Below, piece after piece: positions 3,711 to 23,555 of a DNA stretch of 64,000 nt (positions within the stretch are counted from its first letter, which is position 1; each line of letters starts with the position of its first letter). A program made the position numbers and the translations under genes. Source of the DNA: an uncultured Myxococcales bacterium (lineage in GTDB: Bacteria > Myxococcota > Kuafuiibacteriia > Kuafuiibacteriales > Kuafuiibacteriaceae); NCBI GenBank assembly GCA_964463485.1, contig CAYXDO010000010.1, forward strand, positions 34,105 through 98,104, in the 5' to 3' direction. The notes under the pieces were generated by a model. That model made no database searches. It had not been told where the DNA came from and saw only the letters and a list, made by a program, of their open reading frames with translations.

Positions 3711-6500
3711 TCAACGTTCGAGCAGCCGACTGAGCGCGCCCATCAACGTCTCGGGCAGCGGCACGCCCTCGAAGATCTCGGCGCGACCTTCGAGCGCAAC
3801 GGGTTGGGTCGGACCGCTGTTCGTGATGATGACGACGAAATCTCGATTTCCATCGTCGCGCAGGCGATGCACGAGATCGAGCCGTGTAGATCCATCGACG
3901 ATGACGGCGTCGAAGCGACTCGCGACCACACGCTCTCCGCGATCACGCGCTCGGCCGAGCACATATCCCGCGACGCGGAGGCGCTCTTCGAGCTCTGGAG
4001 TCAGCGGCGAGTCGCCCACGAGCAGGAGCCGTCGCGGAGGCGGCTGGCGATCGGGCAGATCGAGCGTCGAGATCACGTCTTTGAGGTGGTCGACCAAGGC
4101 CTCCACGACGTCACCGCCGATTCGACCGGAGTTCGCGTCCGCGCGGAGCTCGAGGATCGCAGCTCGAGGAGACGACTCGTCCATACTCGCCCGAAGCACG
4201 CGGCTGTAGCGAGTGACGACGAACGCGATCTCTGCGGGCAGCGAGAGAGGCTGCGTGTCGCCGGCGAGCGCGCGCATGACCTCCAACAACACGTTCCGAA
4301 CGGAGACGGGAGCCAGCGAAGTGATCGAGGTCTGATCGTTGGGCTCGTTGGTCAAGCGATCGGCGAGGTCGACCAGCGAAGCGGCGACGCTCGCACGTCG
4401 TTCCACCGTCGAGCCCGCGTGAAGACGATGGGCCACGAAGCGAGCGAGGATCGCCGGGCGTGCGCTCTCCGGGAGGTTGACCCGAGCGAACGACTGCGCG
4501 CGCTCGATGATCTCGATGAGCGTGTCGACGTACCCTTGGGCCTCCCGCGGGTCGTCACGGTCAGCGTCGCCCGATGCGGTGGTCGACAACGCGGAGATGA
4601 GCTCGCTGGCGCTAGCGAAGCGGCGCGCGGGGTCTTTTTCGAGCAAGCGCATGACGATCGTCGAGAGGTTTGGATCGACGTCGCTCCGCCGCGCGTCGGG
4701 CGGTCTCGGGTAGTGATCTTTGAGCGCGAGGCGAGCGTTGGCCTTGCCCGACGCGAGGAACGGAGGCTCCCCGACCAAGAGGCGATAGGTGAGCGCACCG
4801 AGGGCGAACTGATCGGAGCGGCGCGAGTAGGTGCCTGCGGTGACCGTCTCGGGCGCGTTGGCCGAGACGTTGTTGGCGCGATCGGGATGAGCGGGCTCGG
4901 ACGATGCCTCACCGAGAGAGAGGTCGACGAGAAAGGCGCGGCCTTCTGCGCCGATCAAGACGTTGGAGGTTCGGATGTCGCCGTGCGCGATCCCTACGGA
5001 GTGAAGGTGGTCGAGGGCCTCGGCGAGATCTCGAAGCACGATGGCCCCGCGCGCGGAGCTGAGGCGCCGCTCGGGTTCGAGATATCGCGTCAGCGGCTCG
5101 GCCTCGATGAACGTGAAGACCAGAAAGAAGAGCGGGCCGTCGCGGCCGGCGTCGAGGAGCGTTGGGAGTCGGTGATGACGCACGCGACTCCACAAGCGGG
5201 CTTCACGCTGAAACAGCGCGAGCCGCGCTTCGTCTCCGTGAAGGCGTGTGTCCAAAGCTTTCACGGCGACCTTGCGGTTGATGTGCGGGTCGCGTCCGAG
5301 AAAGACGACGGTGTCGCGTCCTGCCGCGATCTCGGAGAAGAGCTCATAGCGCCCGAGCTTGCGGACCGTTCGATCTGCGTCGTCGCTCGTGGGCTCGTTC
5401 GTGATCGGACGACTCGCGGGCGAGATCGTGGATTCGGGTCCTCGAACGATCTGTTGCTCGACGTCTTTGGCGCCCACCCGGGTGTTCGTGATCTTGGCGA
5501 GCGTGTCGGCATCGAGCTTGAGATCGGGCTGCGTGACCTCCTCCGGCACGACCTTGGGTCGCGGCGGCGGCGAGGATGGAGGCTTCGGAGGTAACGCCGA
5601 GGCCCGGATCTTGGCGCGCCGAGCGCGAGACAGCGCAGCCTCGAAGATGCGCTGTTGTGCTTGGCGCTCTAAGGTGAGCGTCGATCGCAACAAATCCCGA
5701 ATCGCGGCTTCGAGCTGCGGCTTGGAGACCGGGGAGAGGGCGGCTTCGACCTCTTCGAGGTTGGGTCGGGTCGATGGATCGTGGGCGAGCATGCTCAAGA
5801 TCAGCGCTCGAACCTCGGGAGGGGTGTCGACCAGTTTGGCGTCGGATAGCTCTCCACGCTCGATCGCGCTTCTGGTGAGCTCGACGCTCTCTTTGGGAAA
5901 GGCGCTCCTCCCCGTCACCGTCTCGAAGAGGATGGTCCCGAGGGAGAAGACCGTGGCGGGCTCGGCGACGTCCTTACGCGTGAGCGCTTCGGGCGCCGTG
6001 TAAGGAAGCGACCCGGGGCCAGGTGCGAGCGCTGCTCGTGCGATGGCGAGCTCGTGACCGAGCAGCTTCACGGTGCCTTCGTCGGAGAGCATCACGTGTC
6101 GTGGCGTGAGAGACCTGAGGGGCGAGATGCCCTGCGACTGGATGCGGCGAAGGGTGCCGGCAACCTGCGCTACGATTCCGGCGGCCAGAGAAGGGTCGAG
6201 CGCGCCCTTGCGGATCGCCAACGAGAGCGCGCTGCCAGGAACGATCTCGCGCACCGAATAGAGCGCGTTCTCGAAGACGTCGACCTCGAGCACGGTGGCC
6301 ACGCCTGGATCGGAGACAGCGCATGAAGCCGGACCGCTCTCGAGGAGCCACCGGCGAAAGACGAGGTCCTTGGAGACCTCGGGCAGGAACAGCTTGAGCG
6401 CGCGCGCCGGGTCGGATCCTTCCACGACGGCGAAGTAGACGTCGCTCAAGTCTCCCGAGCTCATGCGCGTGAGGAGCTCCCACGAACCAACGCTGTGCAC
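3711..6500 (-). CDS. Tandem pseudokinase-kinase Ser/Thr protein kinase with C-terminal receiver-like domain
   Basis: The N-terminal kinase-like domain lacks the HRD Asp and the DFG motif (LTPRHVMLSDEG; KLLGHELAI). The second domain has VAVK, HGDIRTSN, DLSLG and APE motifs. The C-terminal ~120 aa (LLLVGDSPLT...DAVIVDGS...VVIITN) resembles a CheY-like receiver. Confidence 0.75.
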   Translation of the reverse strand: MHSVGSWELLTRMSSGDLSDVYFAVVEGSDPARALKLFLPEVSKDLVFRRWLLESGPASCAVSDPGVATVLEVDVFENALYSVREIVPGSALSLAIRKGALDPSLAAGIVAQVAGTLRRIQSQGISPLRSLTPRHVMLSDEGTVKLLGHELAIARAALAPGPGSLPYTAPEALTRKDVAEPATVFSLGTILFETVTGRSAFPKESVELTRSAIERGELSDAKLVDTPPEVRALILSMLAHDPSTRPNLEEVEAALSPVSKPQLEAAIRDLLRSTLTLERQAQQRIFEAALSRARRAKIRASALPPKPPSSPPPRPKVVPEEVTQPDLKLDADTLAKITNTRVGAKDVEQQIVRGPESTISPASRPITNEPTSDDADRTVRKLGRYELFSEIAAGRDTVVFLGRDPHINRKVAVKALDTRLHGDEARLALFQREARLWSRVRHHRLPTLLDAGRDGPLFFLVFTFIEAEPLTRYLEPERRLSSARGAIVLRDLAEALDHLHSVGIAHGDIRTSNVLIGAEGRAFLVDLSLGEASSEPAHPDRANNVSANAPETVTAGTYSRRSDQFALGALTYRLLVGEPPFLASGKANARLALKDHYPRPPDARRSDVDPNLSTIVMRLLEKDPARRFASASELISALSTTASGDADRDDPREAQGYVDTLIEIIERAQSFARVNLPESARPAILARFVAHRLHAGSTVERRASVAASLVDLADRLTNEPNDQTSITSLAPVSVRNVLLEVMRALAGDTQPLSLPAEIAFVVTRYSRVLRASMDESSPRAAILELRADANSGRIGGDVVEALVDHLKDVISTLDLPDRQPPPRRLLLVGDSPLTPELEERLRVAGYVLGRARDRGERVVASRFDAVIVDGSTRLDLVHRLRDDGNRDFVVIITNSGPTQPVALEGRAEIFEGVPLPETLMGALSRLLER

Positions 6501-6583
6501 GCTGGGCCTCAGGCTATGTCGGGTTTGGTATTTCCGCCAGCCTGTGGCAGCCCAAGGCAGGTGTCCTGTGGTACAGTTCGATT

Positions 6584-9392: not shown

Positions 9393-9528
9393 GACAGACC
9401 TCGATTGTGCTTCAGGAGGGGGCTGGGTGACGAGTGTTTCGAAACGATAAGCGTTCCGTTTGGGTCCGTTCGATTTTCGGACGGCCTTCGAAAAGCGGAC
9501 GGACGTCCGAGATGACCCGAATCTCAGG

Positions 9529-18780: not shown

Positions 18781-18814
18781 TCGTCCGAAAATCGCATCCA
18801 TCGTCCGAAAATCG
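18781..18814. promoter_or_regulatory. Two direct copies of CGTCCGAAAATCGC at 20-bp spacing (candidate operator), upstream of comM/yifB
   Basis: cgtccgaaaatcgcatccatcgtccgaaaatcgc. The same core CGTCCGAAA(A/T)T recurs as a palindrome upstream of recA (21563..21579). Confidence 0.5.
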
Positions 18815-18885
18815 CGAAAACCGGAGCTCGAGATCGCGTGGCCTTCGATCCTCATAGCGGCGCGGACTTTGCTTTCGTGCGCGAC

Positions 18886-20439
18886 GTGCTCGCGACTCTT
18901 CATTCATCTACTCTGATCGGCGTTCGTGCGGATCCCATCGAAATCGAGGTGGAGTTCGCGCAAGGTCTACCGCTGTTCACCATCATCGGACTCGCAGATA
19001 CGGCGGTGCAGGAGGCGCGTTTTCGGATCCAGTGCGCGCTCAGAGCGACCGGAATCGAGATTCCGAGAAAACGAGTGACGCTGAATCTCGCGCCGGCCTC
19101 GATCAGAAAAGACGGCGCCGCGCTGGATCTGCCGATGGCCCTCGGTCTGTTGGTCGCTGCGGAGCGACTCGCGCCAGAGTGTCTTACCGGAACCCTCGTG
19201 CTCGGCGAGCTCGCGCTCTCCGGCGCCGTTCGTCCGGTCCGAGGGATCGTATCGGCGGCCGCGCTCGCTCGAAGGCTCGGCCTGAGTCGCATCATCGTGC
19301 CTCCTGAAAACGCGGCCGAAGCTCTCGCCGTCGGAGGGCTCGAAGTATTGGCGCCCAAGGATCTGGGCGCACTCATGGACCACCTCGAGGGTCGCCAAGC
19401 GCTCGGTGCACCAACGATCACGACACCCCGACCCATGATCACGTCGTCGCTGGATCTCAGCGACATTCGAGGTCAGGCCGGAGCTCGAAGAGCGCTGGAA
19501 ATCGCCGCAGCCGGAGGTCACAACGTCTTGTTCGTGGGTCCACCCGGCAGCGGAAAGACGATGCTCGCGCGAAGGCTCCCCGGAATCCTTCCTCCGATGA
19601 CCCATGCCGAGCAGATCGAGGTGACCGAGGTCTGGTCAGCCGCGGGCCTCACCATGAATGGGCATGGTCTGGTCACCGAGCGTCCGTTTCGAGCGCCTCA
19701 TCCGAGTATCAGCGAGGCTGGTCTCGTCGGCGGCGGACCCACCGTTCGACCGGGCGAGATTTCGCTGTCGCATCGAGGCGTGCTGTTTCTAGACGAGATG
19801 CCCGAGATCCCGAGGCGCGTGCTCGAAGCGTTGCGACAACCGCTCGAAGATCGAGAGGTCGTGATCTCGCGCGCGCGACAGTTCGTGAGGCTGCCGGCCG
19901 CGTTCCAACTCGTGGCGGCAGCCAACCCATGTCCTTGCGGATGGTTCGGTGACGCGCTTCGAAGCTGTCGCTGCTCGGCGATCGACGTACAGAAGTATGC
20001 GGGCCGCATCTCCGGGCCGCTCATCGATCGCATCGACCTGGTCGTTTCGGTGGAGACCTTGGCTCCCGCTGAGATCCTGACCGAGCGGGTTCGTTGGGAC
20101 TCCGACGATTCCTCTCGAGTGCGGGCGCGCGTGACTCGCGCGCGTGAGCTCGCGTTCGCTCGCGGCGTGCGAGAGAACGCGTCACTCACGCGAGCTCGGC
20201 TGGAGTCGAGCGGAACGGTCACGAGCGGGGCGCGAGACACGCTCACGCGGGCCGCCGAGAAGCTGCGATTGTCCGCGCGAGTCATCGACAGAGTGCTGAA
20301 GATCGGCCGTACGATCGCGGATCTCTCTTCGGAGTCGGAGGTCCGGGAGTCGGCGATTCTAGAAGCGCTGACCTACCGCGCGCCGTCTTCGTGGGCGAGC
20401 GGGTCACGGACGACTTCGGACGTCGGGCTGAGTCGATGA
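18886..20439 (+). CDS. comM: YifB/ComM family Mg-chelatase-like AAA+ ATPase
   Basis: GTG start giving (M)LATLHSSTLIGVRADPIEIEVEF, a canonical ComM N-terminus. Lon-like domain, Walker A VGPPGSGKTMLA, and ChlI-type C-terminus. The ORF-track upstream extension to 18571 is non-coding repeat DNA. Confidence 0.85.
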   Translation: MLATLHSSTLIGVRADPIEIEVEFAQGLPLFTIIGLADTAVQEARFRIQCALRATGIEIPRKRVTLNLAPASIRKDGAALDLPMALGLLVAAERLAPECLTGTLVLGELALSGAVRPVRGIVSAAALARRLGLSRIIVPPENAAEALAVGGLEVLAPKDLGALMDHLEGRQALGAPTITTPRPMITSSLDLSDIRGQAGARRALEIAAAGGHNVLFVGPPGSGKTMLARRLPGILPPMTHAEQIEVTEVWSAAGLTMNGHGLVTERPFRAPHPSISEAGLVGGGPTVRPGEISLSHRGVLFLDEMPEIPRRVLEALRQPLEDREVVISRARQFVRLPAAFQLVAAANPCPCGWFGDALRSCRCSAIDVQKYAGRISGPLIDRIDLVVSVETLAPAEILTERVRWDSDDSSRVRARVTRARELAFARGVRENASLTRARLESSGTVTSGARDTLTRAAEKLRLSARVIDRVLKIGRTIADLSSESEVRESAILEALTYRAPSSWASGSRTTSDVGLSR

Positions 20440-20718: not shown

Positions 20719-21114
20719 TCAGCCCTGTTTCTTCTTGCGGCGCGCTTCCCACATCTTGCGGGCGCGCTCGGCGGCCTGGCGGCGGGACTCTTCGCTCCAA
20801 TTCGGCTTCTTGCGGTCACCCTCGGACGCCGAGGCGACCTCCTGAGTCTTGGCGGGCTTCTCTTCGGCCTTGGAGCGCTTGCGCGGAGCCTTGGGGGGCA
20901 CGGGCTTGGCCTCGACCGCGGCCTTCGGCGGACGTCCGGGCTTCTTTCCCGAACCCTTCGGCCGACCGGGGCCGCGCTTCACCGGCGCGTCACCCTTGAG
21001 AGCTCCGACGAGACTCTCGAGTGCCTTGATGTGACCATCGAGTTGCGTACGCTCGCTGCGGAACTTTTCGAGTACCGCCGCGAGGTCCTTGGTGGTTTGT
21101 GCGAGTGCGGACAT
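20719..21114 (-). CDS. Small coiled-coil / AT-hook DNA-binding protein (paralog of 23011..23301)
   Basis: N-terminal heptad-like segment. AT-hook-like GRPKGSGKKPGRPPK. Conserved C-terminal motif WSEESRRQAAERARKMWEARRK shared with the 23011..23301 protein. Confidence 0.7.
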   Translation of the reverse strand: MSALAQTTKDLAAVLEKFRSERTQLDGHIKALESLVGALKGDAPVKRGPGRPKGSGKKPGRPPKAAVEAKPVPPKAPRKRSKAEEKPAKTQEVASASEGDRKKPNWSEESRRQAAERARKMWEARRKKKQG

Positions 21115-21161
21115 GTTGTGGCGTTATCGCATGCTCAGATCGATCTCGCAATGACTCTCGA

Positions 21162-21180
21162 TCGATTAATCGAAAAAAAA
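21162..21180. promoter_or_regulatory. Perfect 12-bp palindrome TCGATTAATCGA followed by an A8 tract in the promoter region of the AT-hook gene
   Basis: Read directly. Lies 48-66 nt upstream of the minus-strand start at 21114. Confidence 0.4.
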
Positions 21181-21502
21181 TTCTCGAGAACGGATCGGTC
21201 GACGGATCGGAGGACCGACCCTCGGCGAATTTTCGAGCCTCTAGGGATCGTTTCTAGGGATTCTCGGACCGCCATGGCCCATTCCGGGTCGGCCGCCTCG
21301 AACTCGCAGATCGCTCCGTTCTCATCGTTTGAATCATTCTGTGCCCGAATTCGAGGGTAGATGACTGGGCCCTTGGGACCTTCTGGATCCGGCGTCGACG
21401 CCTGCGATCGATCTCAGGCGGCTCGCGACGCCTCCGAAAAGGGGAGGACGGGGAAATTTTCCGCGAGAACCACGACGCCACCCGAGGCGGAGTTGGCGAT
21501 CT

Positions 21503-21535
21503 CATGACGCACTCCGCATGACGCACTCCGCATGA
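21503..21535. repeat. Tandem repeat 2.3 x CATGACGCACTCCG upstream of recA
   Basis: catgacgcactccg catgacgcactccg catga. Confidence 0.7.
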
Positions 21536-21543
21536 ATTTCGTG

Positions 21544-21579
21544 AAAAGCGTTTTCGGATCATCGTCCGAAATTCGGACG
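21544..21579. promoter_or_regulatory. Two adjacent palindromes upstream of recA: GAAAAGCGTTTTC and CGTCCGAAATTCGGACG (17-bp perfect inverted repeat)
   Basis: Read directly. About 145 nt upstream of the recA ATG. Shares CGTCCGAAA(A/T)T with the comM upstream region. Confidence 0.5.
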
Positions 21580-21723
21580 TCGGAGGGCCGGGCGCGCGCG
21601 CTTTCGACCTCGCTCGAGCGGCACGTGAGTTGCGAAGGGGCGAGGAGTTCGCGGCGGATCTCCGGGGTCGGCGCAATTCCGCGCCTTCGCTTTCGGGTCA
21701 GGGTCCGTCGCCTGGGAGTTCAT

Positions 21724-22860
21724 ATGTCGATGAAGGACAAGCTCAAGACGGTCGCGCAAGCCATGGGGGAGATCGAAAAGCAGTTCGGGCGAGGTGCGAT
21801 CATGTGGCTCGGCGGGGAGAGCTCGACGGTGCAGGGTTCGGTTTCGGTGATCCCGAGTGGGTCGGTGGGAGTGGATCGCGCGCTCGGCGTCGGCGGCCTC
21901 CCGCGCGGGCGAATCGTAGAAGTCTTCGGTCCGGAGTCGTCCGGAAAGACCACCTTCGCGCTCCACGCGATCGCCGAGGTACAGAAATTGGGCGGAATCG
22001 CCGCCTTCATCGACGCGGAGCACGCGCTCGATCCGAGGTACGCCAGGTCGCTCGGGATCGACCTCGAGAGGTTGTTGGTATCTCAGCCGGACTCCGGTGA
22101 GCAGGCGCTCGAGATCTGCGAGAGCCTGGTGAGGAGCTCCGCGGTCGATCTCATCGTGGTGGACTCCGTCGCGGCCTTGGTGCCCAAGGCCGAGCTCGAG
22201 GGGAGCATGGGCGACGCGCACGTCGGGCTCCAGGCTAGGCTGATGTCGCAAGCCATGCGGAAGCTCACCGGTCAGATCTCGAAGACCGGCTCGTCGATCC
22301 TCTTCATCAATCAGACTCGGCAGAAAATCGGCGTGATGTTCGGCTCGCCGGAGACGACGACGGGAGGCACCGCGCTGAAATTCTACGCGTCGGTGAGGTT
22401 GGAAGTTCGGCGGATCGGCACGGTCAAAGACGGAGAGGTCGTGACTGGCAGTCGCGTTCGCGCGAAGGTGGTGAAGAACAAGTTGGCGCCGCCCTTTCGG
22501 GAGGCCGAGTTCGACATCATGTACGGCGGCGGGATCTCCACCGCGTGCGAGTTGTTGGACATGGGCGTCGAGCGTGGCCTCGTAGAGAAGTCAGGCGCGT
22601 GGTACTCCTTGCTCGACACGCGCATCGGCCAGGGTCGGGAGCGCTCCCGAGTCTGGCTCGAGCAGCGTCCCGTCCTCATGGAGAGACTGCGCACCGCGCT
22701 GTTGTCCGAAGACCTCGACCGCTCCGTGCTCGGGTCGCCGACCTCCTGGGAGCCCGAGGCCACCCCGGAAGGCGACTCAAGCGCTGCGAAGCCAGATGCT
22801 CCCGTCGGTCGCAACGGAGTCTTCTCCGAAGTCTCCTCGATGACTGCGCAGGCTTCTTGA
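21724..22860 (+). CDS. recA: Recombinase RecA
   Basis: [30 protein letters not shown]...GPESSGKTT...[22 protein letters not shown] is unmistakable RecA. The ORF-track N-terminal extension from 21532 is rejected. Confidence 0.95.
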
Positions 22861-23010
22861 AGCGCTCCTCGCTCGGCAAGTCGTGAGGAGGATTGGATTG
22901 CTTCGTTCGGACGAGAGGAGAAATTTCGCTGCGTCAGCGACCGGACCAACTCGCCCAGTCAAAGACCAAGCGAACTTTCCGACCGAGTCCGAGCGCAGCG
23001 ACGAACCAAT

Positions 23011-23301
23011 TCACGCGTCCGCTTTGCGGCGCGCTTCCCACATTCGACGGGAACGCTCGGCAGCCTGACGGCGAGCCTCCTCGCTCCAGACCGGCCTCTT
23101 TCGCGACTTCGCCGGAGCCTCGGCCGGAGCCGCAACCGCTACGACCGCCTTCGGCTTGCGACCGCGCTTCTTCGGCGCGGCTTCCGCCGAGCTCGCTTTG
23201 GCGCCGGTGAACGCACCAATCTGTTGATCCATGGCCCGAGCCTCAGCTCGGAGTACTTCGAGTGCTCTCTCGAGCACGGGGACGACATCATCGAACCGCA
23301 T
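23011..23301 (-). CDS. Small coiled-coil / basic DNA-binding protein (paralog of 20719..21114)
   Basis: KKRGRKPK basic motif. C-terminal WSEEARRQAAERSRRMWEARRK. About 80% nucleotide identity with the 3' end of 20719..21114. Confidence 0.65.
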   Translation of the reverse strand: MRFDDVVPVLERALEVLRAEARAMDQQIGAFTGAKASSAEAAPKKRGRKPKAVVAVAAPAEAPAKSRKRPVWSEEARRQAAERSRRMWEARRKADA

Positions 23302-23555
23302 GAAGACGCACTAACCTCATTTAGGGTCGAATCGCAATGGCTTCGTTTGGGTGAGATCATTTTTTTTTCATTTCCGGTGCGATCCACTCCAGGCCGGGAG
23401 TCATCGCCGGCCTCATCCGGGAGCCACCGGCATGGGTCGCGCGGAGTCAGCCGAGCTACGATCGCTCGAAAGAGGAGTTTCGAGTCATTTCCCGAACGCT
23501 TTGGTTCGAATCAGACAAACCTTGCCTCCAGAGCCCAGTGAGTGACCGCCGGATC

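Follow-up and report, generated by a model that had tools for sequence, protein, structure and literature searches.

What do two small and strongly basic proteins do on either side of a bacterial recombinase gene, and why are the ends of their genes so alike? The question is raised by a locus of an uncultured Myxococcales bacterium, which is contained in a stretch of 64,000 nucleotides with 64% GC (contig CAYXDO010000010.1, positions 34,105 to 98,104). This whole stretch is referred to as the window in the following, and its own numbering is used for all of its coordinates. Here, recA (21727..22860, plus strand) lies between two minus-strand open reading frames (ORFs), termed A (orf131, 20719..21114) and B (orf96, 23011..23301), which encode proteins of 131 aa with a pI of 10.7 and of 96 aa with a pI of 11.1, respectively. 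The recA gene is full-length, with 377 aa and matches to Pfam RecA (3e-132) and TIGR02012 (3.5e-155), and its transcription is divergent from that of A and convergent with that of B. Related loci or contigs are designated by L-numbers below, and the homologous proteins that were compared by P-numbers.

Judged by their sequences, A and B are most likely dimeric architectural DNA binders of the nucleoid-associated type, a reading to which we assign a probability of roughly 0.6. In the next paragraphs we focus on the genes themselves, the family to which they belong and its relation to known DNA-binding proteins, and subsequently on their regulation, their linkage to recA and the history of the repeat at their 3' ends.

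Two Paralogous Genes Around recA

A preliminary description of this DNA had placed two small minus-strand proteins, one on each side of recA, in a common paralogous group. Both ORFs exist as described, and their paralogy is borne out by a BLASTP alignment with an E-value of 7e-12 and by the C-terminal tail WSEE(S/A)RRQAAER(A/S)R(K/R)MWEARRK, in which 21 of 26 residues are identical between the two proteins; as measured by this alignment, their similarity at the protein level is far beyond chance. The tail reads WSEESRRQAAERARKMWEARRK in A, where it lies in the C-terminal helix of residues 108-130, and WSEEARRQAAERSRRMWEARRK in B, where it lies in the helix of residues 74-95, and when all six frames of the window were scanned for the motif, A and B proved to be its sole carriers. 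A is identical to P0001 (hypothetical protein HY791_18150), which stems from the metagenome-assembled genome (MAG) of a "Deltaproteobacteria bacterium", and its ortholog P0002 has 69% identity and keeps the start codon. The ortholog of B, P0028, has 64% identity and keeps the MRFDDV start. At the DNA level, A and its ortholog in L106 give a dN/dS of 0.29, and B and its ortholog a dN of 0.25 with saturated dS. Furthermore, hidden Markov models (HMMs) of the family recover A and B with E-values of 1e-24 to 1e-29.

One or both of the frames could in principle be spurious products of GC-rich DNA, which would also make the repeat at their ends non-coding. The region is indeed full of overlapping long ORFs, as is typical of DNA with 64% GC, no Shine-Dalgarno sequence is evident, and the exact orf96 protein is absent from a collection of 15 billion proteins in which orf131 is present. 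Because of this absence, the B gene may simply not have been called in the source assembly or MAG. On the other side stand the start codons and the dN/dS kept among orthologs, the clustering of differences at third positions, the hundreds of homologs with the same three-part architecture and the common promoter-like layout before both starts. This pattern of conservation refutes the idea of spurious ORFs, which we therefore rejected and to which we give practically no chance; by the same measure, A and B are real genes.

A Widespread Family With Three Modules

AlphaFold predictions depict A and B as two isolated helices each (pTM about 0.3), with pLDDT values above 90 within the helices. In A, a helix of residues 3-40 is followed by a disordered basic linker and the helix 108-130; in B, a helix of residues 3-38 is followed by a disordered linker and the helix 74-95. 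In a sequence search of the PDB, the N-terminal region matches only designed or natural coiled coils. The linker of A carries two AT-hook-like motifs, KRGPGRPKGS and KKPGRPPKA, that of B the single motif KKRGRKPK, and the tail helix is amphipathic, with an S-x-x-E capping box. The coiled-coil N-terminus, the AT-hook-like basic linker and the common C-terminal motif of the preliminary description are thus all found in both proteins.

Profile searches confirm that the shared motif defines a family. An exhaustive search returned 548 representative clusters (50% identity) at E<=1e-3, 76 of them at E<=1e-10, and a word-indexed search with a 115-sequence profile returned at least 1208 clusters (90% identity) at E<=1e-5, on none of which a precomputed Pfam domain was found. 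Against a profile built from the family (A2), A scores E=1.8e-29 and B E=2.4e-24, with all three modules present. Members measure 75-215 aa (median 113) and share a coiled-coil-like N-terminal helix of the pattern L..AL..L..ER..ID..I..LE, a K/R/P/A-rich linker with 0-5 GRP hooks and a C-terminal helix with the consensus W-S-x3-R-x5-R-M-x2-Y-W-A-x-R-R-K. The tail is present once in 128 of 163 proteins and twice in 21, its W17 is invariant, and R12 is kept in 255 of 256 instances. Neither Pfam nor NCBIfam, PHROGs or PADLOC holds a model for A or B, a Pfam scan of 115 members yielded only AT_hook (seven members) and coiled-coil noise, and a literature search turned up no publication on proteins of this kind beside recA. 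The earlier notion of a lineage-specific family stands only in its first half: the family is real, but its size in 90%-identity clusters and its distant members away from recA speak against a restriction to one lineage.

An origin of A and B as mobile element, phage or defence genes was rejected, as PHROGs, PADLOC and plasmid and phage collections (tblastn) gave no matches and the chromosomal synteny is stable. On an unrelated contig, L090, two members (5364-5828 and 6001-6522) stand in tandem, each with two tail motifs; they adjoin a UvrD-type helicase and lie near a CarD_TRCF gene. A separate family (P0015, P0016, P0021 and P0023-P0027), named "transposase-like protein" by JGI, has the coiled coil and GRP hooks as well, together with a C-terminal winged-helix HTH (PF13412). 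Since this group shares the first two parts, it suggests that a coiled-coil and AT-hook module has been combined with different C-terminal heads.

As architectural proteins, A and B would use their three modules as follows. The predicted N-terminal helix of about 38 residues would form a coiled-coil dimer or oligomer, the disordered K/R/P/A-rich linker would bind the AT-rich minor groove by its AT-hook- and histone-H1-like segments, and the conserved tail helix, the module that defines the family, would probably contact the DNA backbone or a common partner. While the linker motifs are directly visible, their binding is a deduction from the established behaviour of AT-hooks, including those of myxobacterial CarD (PMC4374960).

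Several points weigh against this reading. DNA binding, oligomerisation and abundance are all deduced from sequence. The hooks in the window are non-canonical (PGRP and RGRKP, not RGRP) and fall below the Pfam AT_hook threshold: neither A nor B reaches PF02178 at E<=1, whereas the seven members mentioned above do, with a best E-value of 2.6e-5. Moreover, GRP hooks are missing altogether from 58 of 163 members, which means that the core function of the family must lie outside the hooks. The hydrophobic stripe on the tail helix would equally suit a protein-protein contact, and the breadth of the family is poorly documented, with few named members, from Myxococcota and one Bryobacteraceae. Finally, the tight and deep conservation beside recA and comM could mean a role more specific than nucleoid architecture, which is taken up below.

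Relation to Known Proteins

The overall plan recalls H-NS, MvaT/TurB, Lsr2 and Rok, which combine N-terminal coiled-coil oligomerisation and a flexible linker with a C-terminal Q/RGR AT-hook-like reading of the minor groove (PMC6936261). A and B share with these proteins the length class, the basicity and the three-part plan. However, their hooks lie in the disordered linker, with 0-5 GRP across the family, and not in a folded C-terminal domain, and their C-terminus is a single 22-residue Trp helix without counterpart in H-NS-type proteins. Membership in the H-NS family was accordingly rejected: A and B have no match to PF00816 (Histone_HNS), which is also not among the top 25 Pfam families of the 115 members, and they end in this one helix where H-NS has a folded C-terminal domain with a TWTGQGRxP-type motif. 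Lsr2 (PF11774) and MvaT were discarded as well, as A and B match neither of them and neither is among those top 25 families.

A second point of comparison is CarD of myxobacteria, whose AT-hook and H1-like DNA-binding segments are functional (PMC4374960). As that paper relates with reference to Garcia-Heras et al. (2009), the HMGA-like C-terminal domain of CarD from Myxococcus xanthus is unfolded and basic, with RGRP AT-hooks, and in some species it is K/A/P-rich and H1-like (PMC4374960). The linkers of the present family likewise alternate between hook-rich (P0004) and K/A/P-rich forms (B of L091 and of L092). In contrast, CarD has a CarD_TRCF N-terminal domain, which binds RNA polymerase (RNAP) and CarG, and an acidic stretch, in place of which A and B carry a coiled coil and a Trp helix, and a relationship with CarD or CarD_CdnL_TRCF was rejected, there being no PF02559 match in A, in B or in the family scan.

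RecX and DinI are likewise encoded by small genes beside recA. Yet recX is transcribed together with recA, downstream of it, a layout that differs from the divergent A and the convergent B, and DinI is an acidic protein, in contrast to the strongly basic A and B; neither A nor B has a Pfam or NCBIfam match to RecX or DinI, and both candidates were dismissed. Many family members carry KRGPGRPKGSKNK, which is nearly identical to AT-hook II of HMGA1, KRPRGRPKGSKNK. The cores in the window are P-G-R-P in A and R-G-R-K-P in B, compared with R-G-R-P in HMGA1, and A and B are bacterial proteins with flanking helices that are absent from HMGA. The minor-groove helix of NUMOD3-like proteins follows the pattern hSxExRxKxSxxxK. 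NUMOD3 was tried and rejected, since A and B do not match it at E<=1 and it is not among the top 25 Pfam matches across the family.

Upstream Regions of A, B and recA

When the upstream regions are aligned by eye, A and B are found to share a promoter-like layout, and a sigma-70 consensus scan found no promoter. The putative promoter of A (21146..21180, minus strand) contains CATTGCGA, with a -35-like TTGCGA 37 nt before the ATG, and an A/T homopolymer of 8 nt (21173-21180). That of B (23332..23368, minus strand) contains the identical CATTGCGA 36 nt before the ATG, and a homopolymer of 9 nt (23360-23368). These two tracts, situated 59-67 nt before the starts of A and B, are the only A/T homopolymers of at least 8 nt in the window; they precede CATTGCGA at the distance of an UP element, and a weak -10-like hexamer after each CATTGCGA ends a few nucleotides before the ATG. 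The layout is kept in the orthologs of the sister lineage (L106 for A), and TTGCGA or TTGCAA occurs at the same distance upstream of A in L001, L003, L091, L092 and L095. This arrangement suggests near-leaderless mRNAs with an UP-element-like tract, which fits abundant proteins, and the A/T tract may in addition serve as an autoregulatory site for the AT-hooks.

A different element is found closer to recA. The perfect 15-nt palindrome GTCCGAAATTCGGAC (21564..21578) precedes recA by about 150 nt and has no second exact copy in the window, where weaker copies occur at 9468-9482 and at 18783-18797, the latter near the 5' end of comM. Similar half-sites also stand before recA in L088 (two copies), L001 and L087. 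GTCCGAAATTCGGAC may be an operator of recA, perhaps the SOS/LexA-type operator of the clade, and not one of A. In the intergenic region between A and recA, the 14-mer CATGACGCACTCCG further occurs as two exact tandem copies (21503-21530), and Rfam gave no match in the window.

Linkage to recA and Its Possible Meaning

Every sufficiently long contig with a close relative of A holds the same block of genes, in the order Ig-repeat protein, M23 peptidase, comM, sometimes MGMT, A, aat, recA, a VWA gene or B, and DsbH-like thioredoxin. The block is carried by L001, L003, L086, L087, L088, L091, L092 and L095 and is seen in part in the short contigs L093, L098, L103 and L106, and about 13 lineages, all from a single Myxococcota clade, have A in this place, with comM on one side and (aat-)recA on the other. 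The left side of the window matches it with an Ig-repeat protein, an M23 peptidase and comM/yifB (Mg-chelatase-like AAA+; 18880..20439, plus strand), the conserved left neighbour, which converges on A; the ORF of comM is listed from 18571, and its true start is probably near 18880. The window has no aat, with a non-coding spacer of 612 nt (21115-21726) between A and recA instead, so that the two genes are directly divergent, as they are in the sister lineage L106 and in L103. In L088, A is co-directional with its neighbours and not divergent. A copy at the position of B, in the same orientation, is found in L003 (3619-3930), L091 (3392-3793), L092 and L095, which gives five genomes, the window included, in which A and B enclose recA. 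In four lineages this position holds the VWA gene, and the ortholog of B in the sister lineage (L104, L105) keeps an acyl-CoA dehydrogenase neighbour.

The RecA sequences of seven genomes that carry both the block and a complete recA were compared in a tree, in which the window, L001, L003, L086, L087, L088 and L091 form one clade, and as their RecA identities are only 66-74%, the arrangement of the block is old. As a negative control, contigs were scanned with RecA as bait, and among the 80 recA loci listed, which come from across Bacteria and not from close relatives, no full family member adjoins recA; in particular, the family was not found at the other Myxococcales and Anaeromyxobacter loci among them. 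At one locus of an uncultured Myxococcales bacterium (L006, 6910-7356, minus strand), an ORF that is divergent from recA matches weakly, with a coiled coil and a basic region only and no tail, and it may represent a relative that has degenerated or diverged. The linkage of the family to recA, proposed from the window, is recovered in other genomes of the clade, and for the distant members in L089, L090 and L099-L102 neither recA nor comM nor aat was found nearby. It may, however, be plain synteny of the block, in which the M23 peptidase, comM, aat and DsbH-like genes are conserved alongside.

Does this linkage reflect function? A and B might be dedicated accessory factors of recombination or the SOS response, either as local regulators of the (aat-)recA operon or as modulators of RecA or ComM. 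Such a role is possible because the positional conservation is both deep and exact: in the subfamily, no contig of adequate length has A anywhere other than between comM and recA, despite the divergence of RecA, and in L001, L003 and L091 a gap of only 57-77 nt separates the start of A from the first gene of the recA operon, a divergent aat (or 2-oxoacid dehydrogenase) gene. B directly follows the 3' end of recA in the five genomes mentioned, the neighbours comM, recA and sometimes MGMT are all genes of DNA transactions, and even the distant tandem pair of L090 adjoins a helicase gene of the UvrD type. However, synteny extends over the whole block, in which the genes for the M23 peptidase, aat, the DsbH-like thioredoxin and the Ig-repeat protein are unrelated, and adjacency alone is therefore weak evidence. 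A divergent orientation is not kept in L088, the VWA gene replaces B in four lineages, the distant members in L089, L090 and L099-L102 have no recA, comM or aat nearby, the other Myxococcales and Anaeromyxobacter recA loci among the 80 lack the family, and the palindrome proximal to recA is about 450 nt away from the start of A. On balance, we regard a dedicated recombination or SOS role as unlikely, and the general architectural role as the preferred one. Improbable to a further degree is a joint claim in which A and B form a heteromeric chromatin unit that brackets recA and loops or insulates it, setting its expression or the local recombination activity. Under that claim the two proteins would pair as a coiled-coil heterodimer, their co-evolving Trp-helix tails would engage RecA, ComM or the RNAP alpha-CTD, and the two unique A/T tracts, one at each end of the locus, would be the sites of binding.

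The Direct Repeat and the History of the Tails

The 3' coding ends of A (20735..20814, encoding the tail motif) and B (23024..23103) form a direct repeat of 80 nt. In a repeat search the copies were identical at 64 of 80 positions, with a longest exact run of 20 nt and a start-to-start distance of 2289 nt, which agrees with the repeats of about 80% identity some 2.3 kb apart that had been reported around recA. This repeat lies wholly within the two coding ends, and the region has no other long direct repeat. The nucleotide identity of the tails was compared with the expectation from both peptides and the local codon usage. For A and B of the window, 62 of 78 positions (0.79) are identical against an expected 0.69 (P about 0.003), for those of L003 52 of 78 (0.67) against 0.62 (P=0.13), and for those of L091 65 of 78 (0.83) against 0.78 (P=0.09); in the window, the same codon is used at 15 of 21 identical residues, where 10.2 are expected (P about 0.003). 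The tails of A and B in the window differ with dN=0.114 and dS=1.07, compared with a dS of 0.52 for the same segment of the A orthologs. These values indicate that the repeat is an old paralogous coding segment and not a recently homogenised one; for the most part it is a by-product of the strong purifying selection that acts on the tail in a GC-rich genome with biased codon usage.

Different histories are suggested by the two ends of the proteins. Trees were built for the N-terminal 40 residues and for the 26-residue tail, both of them weak. The N-terminal tree unites all copies of A, as well as B of L003, L092, L091 and L095, and sets B of the window and P0028 on a separate long branch. In the tail tree, by contrast, A and B of the window group with P0002 and P0028, and the tail of B in L091 falls among those of A. 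Tail positions 13 and 16 are M and Y in 222 of 256 instances and have the rare state A(S) and M in eight, four of which are A and B of the window and their orthologs P0002 and P0028. The two positions co-vary, which is consistent with packing on the same face of the helix. As anciently diverged paralogs share a rare derived state, an old conversion of the 3' ends, a lineage-specific re-duplication or the co-evolution of both tails on the same partner is suggested.

Two recombinational explanations of the likeness have to be weighed against selection on the tail peptide. In the bolder one, the repeats are functional substrates for the excision, loss or tandem duplication of recA, as the preliminary description had considered. 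The repeats are direct, they bracket recA exactly at their distance of 2289 nt and they contain a perfect match of 20 nt. Yet with an identity of only 80% and no longer exact match they are a poor substrate for recombination, their differences are mainly synonymous, and a dS of 1.07 means that the copies have gone without exchange for a very long time. The conserved peptide and the codon bias predict most of the identity, the order A-recA-B persists in five divergent genomes (RecA identities of 66-74% within the clade) and in the sister lineage, and recA itself would be lost in the event. No variant contigs came to light, and a metagenome scan for window-type tails returned nothing; a second metagenome scan (A6) gave 12 loci. 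The suggestion of excision or duplication thus finds no support, and we give it only a very slight chance. The milder explanation, gene conversion between A and B across recA, by which the 3' ends would have evolved in concert beyond what peptide selection explains, fares better. It is favoured by the incongruence of the N- and C-terminal trees and by the identity of the A and B tails within a genome (81% in the window, 85% in L091), as compared with 35-54% for the same position across lineages and 20-40% for the N-termini of A and B within a genome. The rare state shared by A and B of the window, the A-like tail of B in L091, which is not seen in B of its relative L095, and the modest excess of identical codons in the window point in the same direction. 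Nevertheless, the tail dS in the window exceeds that of the A orthologs, so that any conversion must predate the split between the window and L106, and a recent duplication or conversion was rejected in view of the saturated dS. For L003 and L091 the DNA identity does not exceed expectation, the tails of 26 residues give weak trees, and co-evolution with a partner or independent duplications would yield the same pattern. Conversion beyond peptide selection is, for these reasons, a tentative and somewhat unlikely proposal, and selection on the tail is preferred as the main cause of the repeat.

Implications

With the repeat explained in this manner, a tempting reading, that of recombinogenic repeats bracketing recA, is removed. 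What is left is an uncharacterised family whose clusters number in the hundreds at 50% identity and exceed 1000 at 90%, with no curated model and no studied member, and with a three-module design that pairs a coiled coil with eukaryote-like AT-hooks. The constant position of A beside comM and recA and the homogenisation of the two tails by lineage both give rise to testable hypotheses on partner binding. If the two proteins did act as a heteromeric unit that brackets recA, they would represent a dedicated, locus-specific architectural system for a recombinase gene. If they are nucleoid-associated, as preferred here, A, B and their relatives would be candidates for an H-NS-like role in Myxococcota and other GC-rich phyla, in which this role is poorly defined.

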